A stretch of 64,000 bases of DNA from Escherichia phage T2. The notes beneath the pieces were generated by a model. That model did no database searches. It had not been told where the DNA came from and worked only from the letters and a program-made list of their open reading frames with translations. Both the position numbers and the translations under genes were made by a program. Shown one piece after another: positions 8,907 through 11,330 of the stretch. The number at the start of each line of letters is the position of its first letter. Position 1 is the first letter of the stretch. Where the stretch lies: sequence record NC_054931.1. One strand, written 5' to 3'.

Positions 8907-9182
8907 TCAAAATGTAATTTCTAACCAATCACCATCACGCTGATCACTATTGACTTTAAAATTAAATCCTTCTTTTCTCAGCCAATCACCAATTTCTTCA
9001 GTAATCAATTTATCGCGAGCAGTATAATAACTAAAATATGTTTTACCTTGTTCAGCTGCTTTATTAGCAAGTTCCGAAAAATCTTTAATAAAACACTCTA
9101 GCTTAAACTGTTTACTTTTTAATGCTTTTTCGCGTAATTGATTAGCAAAAGATTCATTTTCATAAAGTTCATACTGTTCCAT
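8907..9182 (-). CDS. hypothetical protein (T4 24.2/24.3 region)
   Basis: 91 aa ORF with AAGGTGA RBS; overlaps the upstream ORF by 14 nt. Confidence 0.6.
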   Translation of the reverse strand: MEQYELYENESFANQLREKALKSKQFKLECFIKDFSELANKAAEQGKTYFSYYTARDKLITEEIGDWLRKEGFNFKVNSDQRDGDWLEITF

Positions 9183-9384
9183 TTTTCACCTTTTTATTGA
9201 TATGTCTTTTTCTATAGACAACTTTTTCTCGAGTTTCAAATTTATTCTTAGCAGTCATAGCTCGAGCCCATAATACAGCCACTTCTTTTGCATGTAAGTT
9301 TAATTCACGAGCAATTTCAATGAATGACTTTCCAGACTCATGAAGAGTAAACACCACAACCTCAGTTCTCATATTCAATCTCAT
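9169..9384 (-). CDS. hypothetical small protein, possible helix-turn-helix
   Basis: 71 aa ORF; segment SFIEIARELNLHAKEVAVLWAR resembles an HTH; weak RBS. Confidence 0.5.
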   Translation of the reverse strand: MRLNMRTEVVVFTLHESGKSFIEIARELNLHAKEVAVLWARAMTAKNKFETREKVVYRKRHINKKVKNGTV

Positions 9385-9473
9385 GTTATCGAGTTGGTGC
9401 CATTATATACATCATTTTCTGATTGTGTTTTGTGTGCTTTCAAAATGAAGAAAGGGGCCGAAGCCCCTTATGA

Positions 9474-10590
9474 TTATGGATAGGTATAGATGATACCAGT
9501 TTCTAAAGCAGTTTTATGAATGATGTATCCATTACGCGATTCTTGGACATCAACTTCTGGATAGTCTTTCATCATCTTCTGAAGAGTGTAACGATGCAGG
9601 TAGTATTTACTCTGGATCTTCAGTTTTCCAATCTTTACCTTCTTCAGTCATTTTTTGGATTTCATCCATAACCCACCAACCGCACCAGATGTAAGCTGAA
9701 GTACGATGTGGAAGAGGATGAACATAAGGTAATTCACCTTCTGGTTCTGGAGCAACTTTATCAGTTACCTGAACTTGACCTGTTGTTTTAACTGTTTTGC
9801 TATCATAATCAGTAGCAGTAACGACGGCAGTCACTTCAATAGTTTGACTTCCAACAGATGAAGTATCAACGGTATATACATTAGTTGACCCTTCTACAGG
9901 AGAAGAATCTTTCTTCCATGAATAAGTAATTTGCGCTTCTTCTGGAGCATCAGTAACATTAGCAGTAAATGTAGCCGAAGCATCTTGTTGAACGTTAATA
10001 GAAGGAGGAGTCAATGTAACCTGTGGATTCATTGTCTTCTTATTAACCGTTAATGACACTTCATTAGAAGTAACGCTTAGTGCATCATAATCTGTCGCGG
10101 TTACTTGAGCTACACACTTGATTTTTTAACTCCACTTGTAGTTGGAGTATAGCTAAATGTAGAGTTAGTTTCTCCACCAACTTGTGAATCATCTACATAC
10201 CACTGATACGTAGCAGATGCTCCATCAGGTTGAGAAGCTAAGGCAGCAGTAAATTGAACTGGGGTTCCGATTACTCCAGCGTCAGGGCTATTAGGAGTTA
10301 CAGCTAAGGTGGTCGTTTGTGTCTTATTTTGAACTGTGATAGTTGTAGTAGCTTCTGCTGTTTCAGCTTCAGCTTCTGGAATTGTATTTGTTGCAACTAC
10401 TTTAATAGTCTTTTGACCGGCAGGTATAACTAAAAGTTGCTTCAGCTCCATCTTGTGGAACATTATCTACGCTCCAAGCATAGGTAATAGTTCCACCTTC
10501 AGTTTGACCACTGGGTGCAGCAGTAAACTGCTTGGTTTCATCAATAACCCCTGTCGGTGTTTTAGGAGTTATATCAACTGTAAAAGTCAT
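9474..10590 (-). pseudogene. hoc: outer capsid protein Hoc, interrupted by at least three frameshifts
   Basis: Three track ORFs (10402..10590, 10110..10463, 9607..10059) in different frames together encode the Ig-like Hoc domains; the capsid-binding C-terminus (YYLHRYTLQKMMKDYPEVDVQESRNGYIIHKTALETGIIYTYP) is in a further frame below 9607. Confidence 0.75.
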
Positions 10591-10599
10591 AAGTTATCC

Positions 10600-11280
10600 T
10601 TATTTTAATGTTACGAAAGAAGAATTGCGTGTTTCACGAATTAAAACTGATCCGTCGCGGTTAATGTAATAAATTAAGCTAAATAAAGTTTGGTGTGCTG
10701 ACGCATGTTCAAAACTAGTTGGGTGAGATTTCCAATCCGGAGTTTCAGCAATCCATTGATAAATCCACCAAGGAACAGTGCAGAATCCTGGATTTTTTCC
10801 AATCAGCTGAAGATTCGGACTAAAGTTTTCCGGAAGAGTAAATACAGACGGCTTTTCAGATTCAATAATCTCAGCTACAGCTTGTTCAAACTTTTCTTCA
10901 ACAAAAGGAGTATCTTCAATCAAAACATCGGTATTTTCAGGAATTTTATCCGTTTCTACTACTTCAATTTTAATGTCAGATTTAACCGGAGAATCAATCA
11001 GAAGTGCTGCTTCTGGATTGACTTCTTCATCGTCATATTTTAATCCCTCTGCGGCATCAGCAGCATCAATTAAGTCTTTAATAGATAACCCATCAGTCTC
11101 TGGCATAGGTTCACTAGCGAGCTTCTGGAGGGCTTCTTCAATATCAACAACGATATTATCAAAAGATTTATTCTTTTTGACCTTTATACCAAACTGTTCA
11201 GCATATTCAGCTAATTTAGCTTTAGCTTCTTTGTTATCATCAAGAGCCTTCAGCTCTGCAATATAATCTTTATCTATCAT
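10600..11280 (-). CDS. inh: inhibitor of prohead protease
   Basis: 226 aa ORF, size and position as T4 inh, next to hoc. Confidence 0.8.
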   Translation of the reverse strand: MIDKDYIAELKALDDNKEAKAKLAEYAEQFGIKVKKNKSFDNIVVDIEEALQKLASEPMPETDGLSIKDLIDAADAAEGLKYDDEEVNPEAALLIDSPVKSDIKIEVVETDKIPENTDVLIEDTPFVEEKFEQAVAEIIESEKPSVFTLPENFSPNLQLIGKNPGFCTVPWWIYQWIAETPDWKSHPTSFEHASAHQTLFSLIYYINRDGSVLIRETRNSSFVTLK

Positions 11281-11330
11281 AATATTTCCTCAGTATAAAT
11301 ATAGATATATTTATTACATGGTATTTAGAC

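Follow-up and report, generated by a model that had tools for sequence, protein, structure and literature searches.

What is left of hoc in phage T2, and could it still give rise to a capsid protein? The question is raised by positions 9474-10590 of the window, by which we mean the whole 64,000-nt stretch of Escherichia phage T2 DNA (NC_054931.1) analyzed here. The original prediction read this interval as hoc split across four reading-frame segments by three apparent losses, and expected the phage to lack a functional Hoc. In the Hoc protein, three Ig-like domains precede a capsid-binding domain at the C-terminus, in which ESRNG (residues 355-359) is the most conserved element (PMC10385173). 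We conclude with high confidence that positions 9474-10590, on the minus strand, are T2 hoc, turned into a pseudogene by three independent small deletions of 11, 1 and 2 nt.

Over its first 24 kb, the window matches at 100% identity the T2 records MH751506, AP018813 and PV648364 and also SV76 (OM339528), itself a T2 duplicate. The remnant and its signals lie as follows.

9474..10590, minus strand: hoc pseudogene of phage T2; the remnant measures 1117 nt (intact relatives: 1131 nt) and, with 14 nt put back, is collinear with residues 1-376 of T4 Hoc
10588-10590, minus strand: hoc start codon ATG, unchanged with respect to relatives
10597..10601, minus strand: ribosome-binding site AAGGA, which overlaps the inh stop codon and lies 6 nt upstream of the ATG of hoc
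9452..9469, minus strand: intrinsic terminator hairpin AAGGGGCTTCGGCCCCTT followed by a T-run, just past the hoc stop

Both neighborhood and sequence identify the locus. It is flanked by inh (10600..11280) and by the 24.3 homologue (9169..9384), the arrangement of T4, according to the annotations of T2, T4, FL33, G8 and fPS-2. The repaired translation aligns without a gap to residues 1-376 of T4 Hoc (PDB 5vf3 chain Z, E=8e-229) and matches PHROG 1149, 'Hoc-like head decoration' (E=6e-124). Pfam returns a PKD domain above cut-off (E=4.5e-6), together with Ig_3/I-set matches that are weak and fall below the gathering cut-off. The AAGGA ribosome-binding site occupies invariant alignment columns and is the same as in intact relatives, and the terminator hairpin is identical to the terminator annotated in T4 (X14869), which is also annotated in G8, fPS-2 and Aplg8. 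Full-length collinearity with T4 Hoc and conserved synteny both hold for the T2 locus, and its earlier assignment to hoc is borne out by these matches, the inh-hoc-24.3 order and the conserved terminator. The Ig/PKD-like domains and, at the C-terminus, the capsid-binding domain with its ESRNG motif are all there, yet as separated pieces. What the locus lacks, owing to three frameshifting deletions, is an uninterrupted ORF, and it is therefore classed as a hoc pseudogene and not as a hoc gene.

Set beside T4 hoc, the T2 copy occupies the same place between inh and 24.3, ends at the same terminator, has the same 376 codons once repaired, and shares 92.6% of its coding nucleotides and the domain order (three Ig/PKD-like domains, then the C-terminal ESRNG domain). 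In contrast to T4, where hoc is a single ORF whose product decorates the capsid, the T2 copy carries three frameshifting deletions and cannot encode the protein. On the minus strand, the T4-type late promoter TATAAATA has no exact match immediately upstream of either hoc or inh; the closest sites, near 11308-11329, differ from it by one mismatch. Over the whole window this T4 late-promoter octamer occurs 18 times, against 8.4 expected from shuffles. On the plus strand, a 47-aa ORF at 9340-9483 spans the stop codon and terminator of hoc in antisense; PV958097 calls it a 'hypothetical protein', and it looks like a spurious call.

The lesions were mapped by aligning window positions 9440-10620 (minus strand) with the intact hoc genes of T4 (X14869), FL33, G8 and fPS-2. 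Exactly three gaps separate T2 from these four genes, 14 nt in total.

Junction 10425..10426, minus strand: lesion 1, an 11-nt deletion by alignment (GTAyTAAAAGG; GTACTAAAAGG or GTATTAAAAGG in relatives)
10122..10127, minus strand: lesion 2, loss of one A from a homopolymer, now A6 (A7 in G8 and fPS-2, AAAAGAA in T4)
Junction 9611..9612, minus strand: lesion 3, a 2-nt deletion by alignment (AT; CCAGATAGT reduced to CCAGAGT)

Lesion 1 takes out Hoc codons 56-59 and shifts the frame, lesion 2 returns reading to the original frame (frame A below), and lesion 3 splits the capsid-binding domain at residues ~331/332. Re-insertion of the 14 nt yields a stop-free ORF of 1131 nt and 376 codons. Slippage readily accounts for the loss in the A-run; little or no microhomology flanks the deletions of 11 and 2 nt. 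The alignment places the three losses where they had been proposed, near 10425-10432, 10122-10127 and 9608-9612.

These deletions divide the gene into four pieces, read in two frames that we call A and B.

10426..10590, minus strand: piece 1, frame A, covering Hoc residues 1-55 (Ig-like domain 1, N-terminal half)
10402..10425, minus strand: out-of-frame tail of piece 1, TCRSKDY, then TAA at 10402-10404
10128..10424, minus strand: piece 2, frame B, covering Hoc residues about 60-158 (remainder of Ig domain 1 and PKD-like domain 2)
9612..10125, minus strand: piece 3, frame A, ending ...KTEDPE with TAA at 9607-9609; weak Pfam Ig_3/I-set
9474..9611, minus strand: piece 4, frame B, covering Hoc residues about 332-376 and reading SKYYLHRY...ESRNG...IIYTYP up to the stop

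Four minus-strand ORFs correspond to them, at 10402..10590 (62 aa), 10110..10463 (117 aa), 9607..10059 (150 aa) and 9474..9575 (33 aa), each with a recognizably Hoc translation, and the first three at the positions originally given for them. The ORF at 10110..10463 begins at an out-of-frame ATG upstream of lesion 1; as start-to-stop ORFs, it and the one at 9607..10059 do not overlap, whereas their open frames do. The claim of four segments, the last in yet another frame, holds for the number of pieces and fails for the number of frames. There are just two, alternating A, B, A, B with every stretch closed by stop codons; piece 3 agrees in frame with piece 1, and piece 4 with piece 2, because the 11 nt and 1 nt lost at lesions 1 and 2 add up to 12, which restores the original frame after lesion 2. 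The same sum might have made lesions 1 and 2 (-11 and -1, together -12) mutually compensating; this was rejected, as the shifted frame meets a TAA 24 nt past lesion 1. Taken together, the pieces are collinear with the intact gene at 92-94% nucleotide identity, and the gene is uninterrupted in all 19 intact relatives extracted. The agreement of the pieces with intact hoc is not chance.

A sequencing or assembly artefact, with hoc truly intact in T2 and the indels representing errors such as homopolymer miscalls, would produce the same pattern on paper, and one of the three lesions does sit in a homopolymer, a classic error site. The records speak otherwise. Six of them (five T2 and SV76) are 100% identical across 1301 nt spanning the locus, and the five T2 records come from several submissions, with E. 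coli B, K-12 BW25113 or an unstated strain as host. The 11-nt and 2-nt deletions fall in non-repetitive sequence and are atypical of platform errors. At the A-run at 10122-10127, the one of the three sites with published read counts, all 2238 of 2238 reads have length 6 in the population shown in the supplement of a recent preprint (10.1101/2025.10.21.683753), with no heterogeneity. The lesions also agree with a passage of a review in which T2 is said to lack Hoc (PMC8396182). We attach next to no probability to an artefact; alignments, six identical records and read counts together place the disabling lesions in the DNA itself.

Annotators have met the same fragments. AP018813 annotates three of them, two as 'large head outer capsid protein' and one as 'head outer capsid protein'; PV958097 likewise annotates three, each as 'Hoc-like head decoration protein'; in MH751506 the interval carries no annotation; and two split CDS, KMC23_gp228 and gp229, appear on the RefSeq record NC_054931 in one of the preprint's supplementary tables (10.1101/2025.10.21.683753). 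Automatic annotation of T2 passes over the locus in some cases and in others predicts two or three spurious 'Hoc-like' proteins. A further 1-bp deletion, at window position about 10563 (NC_054931 106563), lies within piece 1 in T2 passaged with ptgvAB (Supplementary Table 4 of 10.1101/2025.10.21.683753); the preprint labels it 'intergenic' because RefSeq leaves piece 1 unannotated.

The lesions are also private to T2. Among 50,697 phage records searched, a 70-nt probe over each junction was found exactly only in the six T2/SV76 records; the other matches to the probes span 79-81, 71 or 72 nt, that is, they keep an extra 9-11, 1 or 2 nt. Degenerate patterns of all three junctions had no match in IMG/VR, the junction 1 pattern none in metagenome contigs, and the junction 3 pattern none in genome contigs. 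As positive controls, intact hoc was recovered at 21 IMG/VR loci and the intact form of junction 3 in nine metagenome contigs. The three T2 lesions were thus found in no sequence other than T2 and SV76 across the phage records, IMG/VR, and the metagenome and genome contigs as searched. A relative carrying the identical sequence as a single ORF was also looked for and none was found; at best, intact hoc genes reach 93-94% identity overall, and the one nearest to T2, at 93.6%, retains the 14 nt. Every T2 stock sequenced so far carries the lesions, which are fixed. At T2 junction 1, two records labelled 'Escherichia phage T4' (MZ375356 and OL964745, 151.8 and 159.8 kb) have 79 nt rather than 81, with 'head outer capsid protein (x2)' annotated in one; their hoc would seem to be altered by 2 nt, and the strains look engineered or deleted.

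The start codon, ribosome-binding site and terminator of T2 hoc are intact, so that transcription and initiation should proceed. A ribosome would then translate 55 native codons, meet the 11-nt deletion, shift frame and stop after 62 residues. This 62-aa peptide, 55 native codons followed by seven wrong residues, is the sole product from the authentic hoc start, and pieces 2, 3 and 4 have no authentic start.

Ribosomes might in principle read through such a gene. T4-type phages have one famous translational bypass, that of gene 60, and programmed recoding at three sites, or a bypass of that kind, would yield full-length Hoc. At lesion 2, a -1 slip on the A6 run would indeed read ...SGVKK/IKCVAQ... 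correctly without meeting a stop. Recoding signals would, however, be expected to be conserved, yet hoc is a plain uninterrupted ORF in 19 of 19 intact relatives extracted; the split arrangement is not shared, as the T2 deletions were not found outside T2 and SV76. Judged from the sequence, site 2 alone, with its A6, is slippery, and neither slippery motif nor take-off or landing signal is seen at sites 1 and 3, which are deletions in ordinary sequence, the first with four codons lost. Three low-efficiency events in series would give a negligible yield, and T2 is reported without Hoc in the review passage (PMC8396182). Recoding to full-length Hoc is, in our view, barely credible. Lesion 2 alone could in principle be leaky, suppressed by a low-level -1 ribosomal or transcriptional slip on A6; slippage there does not rescue lesions 1 and 3.

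Reversible switching is a second way in which the A-run could matter. Homopolymers of at least 6 nt in T2, T4 and T6 have been proposed as contingency loci, and this A-run is listed among them (10.1101/2025.10.21.683753); the tract would then turn hoc on and off, with Hoc-plus phages present in T2 populations. The tract is a coding simple-sequence repeat (A6 at 10122-10127, an SSR in the preprint's T2 table), lesion 2 amounts to a one-base change in it, and T6 has an independent +1 at the same tract. Neither reversibility nor heterogeneity is seen. A change from A6 to A7 would leave the 11-nt and 2-nt deletions in place and the gene off, and 0 of 2238 reads varied at the tract in the population shown. 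The T2 change thus differs from a contingency locus in being fixed (2238/2238 reads) and in being accompanied by two lesions outside repeats, which leaves no reversible switch. We consider phase variation of T2 hoc very improbable.

A third possibility is that the split gene remains functional, with fragments translated from internal starts acting as a shorter decoration protein. Short forms do occur in nature, such as the PG7 protein of 233 residues, which has one Ig domain and the binding domain (PMC10385173), and piece 3 has a GTG start and Ig domain 3. Lesion 3, however, leaves piece 3 without the last 45 residues, including ESRNG, while piece 4 (33-45 aa) retains the ESRNG motif of the capsid-binding domain but has no Ig domain and is cut off from the upstream parts. 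No T2 fragment matches the known short variants, which combine one or two Ig domains with the whole binding domain, and inspection short of a formal scan noticed no ribosome-binding site for internal starts. We give a short functional Hoc only a small chance.

No possible T2 fragment links an Ig-like domain to a complete C-terminal capsid-binding domain, and therefore no functional Hoc is expected. The lesion map makes a strong case that T2 would produce none, as had been predicted. No Hoc fibre would then be mounted at the centers of the hexamers of gp23, the major capsid protein, and T2 would be a natural Hoc-null phage. In 1970s capsid work by Ishii and Yanagida, Hoc was reportedly missing from T2. 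A passage of the review (PMC8396182), citing Dabrowska et al. 2007, states that Hoc 'is not present' in T2, and the Hoc-null state inferred here fits that published statement. The loss would be expected to cost nothing in culture, because Hoc is non-essential (PMC3012670). The Hoc-less phenotype of T2 is thus already in the literature, and the fragmented gene is visible in GenBank annotation. Our literature search for T2 hoc lesions at the sequence level found no paper spelling out the three, and the map of the three deletions is the only new element; it supplies a cause, at the nucleotide level, for the published account of T2 virions as Hoc-less and leaves the understanding of Hoc itself unchanged.

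T4 hoc-null mutants, namely HAP1 and the hoc-deletion strains used for display, resemble T2 in having lost a dispensable decoration protein at no growth cost in culture (PMC8396182; PMC10385173). Studies of how phages behave in mammals have set T2 beside T4 and HAP1, a comparison that the review attributes to the absence of Hoc from T2 (PMC8396182). HAP1 differs in owing its state to one nonsense mutation in hoc, whereas T2 has three independent, fixed deletions and no route to reversion: all three would have to be undone separately. T2 is therefore unusable for Hoc display unless hoc is repaired. A lack of Soc in T2 as well is contradicted at the gene level: the T2 record MH751506 has an intact annotated soc of 258 nt, at 1453-1710 of the extracted segment and outside the window. 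At that level, T2 has lost just one of the two T4-type decoration proteins.

How long ago hoc was lost was approached by comparing repaired T2 hoc with the 19 intact relatives, which were the best BLAST hits to the whole gene or to segments of it, a choice biased towards sharing T2 alleles. T2 is 91-94% identical to them, with 295 variable alignment columns. Within this best-hit sample, none of 1131 sites carries a nucleotide state private to T2. Dating by private substitutions or dN/dS gave no computable ratio, because there are no private substitutions against the 19 relatives. T2 hoc appears from these alignments to be a mosaic of circulating alleles with three private indels and zero private substitutions. 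Lesions that are fixed in T2, were found nowhere else searched and come without private substitutions therefore point to a very recent inactivation in evolutionary terms, either shortly before isolation or in the decades of laboratory propagation. Simple neutral decay does not predict three indels beside zero private substitutions. By rough arithmetic from the T4 mutation rate, neutral drift in laboratory passage seems too slow for three hits in 1.1 kb.

T6 hoc offers a parallel at one of the three sites. In the T6 record MH550421 the gene is unannotated, and its reading breaks into an N-terminal ORF of 161 aa, which ends ...TTSGVKKN, and a C-terminal frame.

1209-2340 of the extracted segment of MH550421, minus strand: T6 hoc, with a +1-nt lesion near 1855-1870

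By alignment, the extra nucleotide falls in the A-tract of T2 lesion 2 (T6 GGAGTTAAAAAGAATT versus T4 GGAGTAAAAAGAATT). It is present in both independent T6 sequences, MH550421 and AP018814, as well as in RefSeq NC_054907, and in no other record. T6 hoc thus resembles T2 hoc in being split, and the only lesion found in it lies at the tract of T2 lesion 2; it differs in gaining a nucleotide rather than losing one and in being free of lesions 1 and 3. The downstream frame of T6 retains Ig domain 3 and the complete capsid-binding domain, so that T6, unlike T2, could conceivably yield a short product. A 2026 reporter-phage paper took the T6 'Hoc-like' gp220 (666 nt) as its integration locus. The frameshift is a caution against treating gp220 as a normal hoc.

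Private hoc frameshifts are thus found in two of the three classical T-even phages, both touching the same A-tract, which is suggestive, and not more, of a hot spot there, perhaps with relaxed or positive selection in culture. A possible, if rather unlikely, extension is that the classical T-even stocks lost Hoc convergently: the A-tract, where Ig domains 2 and 3 meet, would be a slippage hot spot, hit independently in T2 (-1) and in T6 (+1), and the T2 indels would mark laboratory domestication or an indel-biased mutational episode and not ordinary natural decay.

Only one or two of 59 evenly spaced non-T2 records have a split hoc annotation, OE5505 and possibly AR1: NC_054926 (OE5505) lists 'Hoc-like head decoration (x2)', and AP011113 (AR1) has two features under the hoc match, 'hoc' and 'hypothetical protein'. 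Both may be further natural split hoc genes. Among environmental hoc loci 3 of 30 look split (2 of 21 from IMG/VR, 1 of 9 from metagenomes), at positions unlike those of the T2 lesions.

IMG/VR locus L027, about 1938-1982: apparent split
IMG/VR locus L028: apparent split
Metagenome locus L051, about 2865-2880: apparent split

These three could be real disruptions or assembly errors. Length varies as well: in several relatives (loci L030, L011, L016, L018 and L025), with 310Ecol104PP and its hoc of 1419 nt as an example, the gene is longer and has an extra Ig-like domain, and the number of domains therefore varies within Tequatrovirus.
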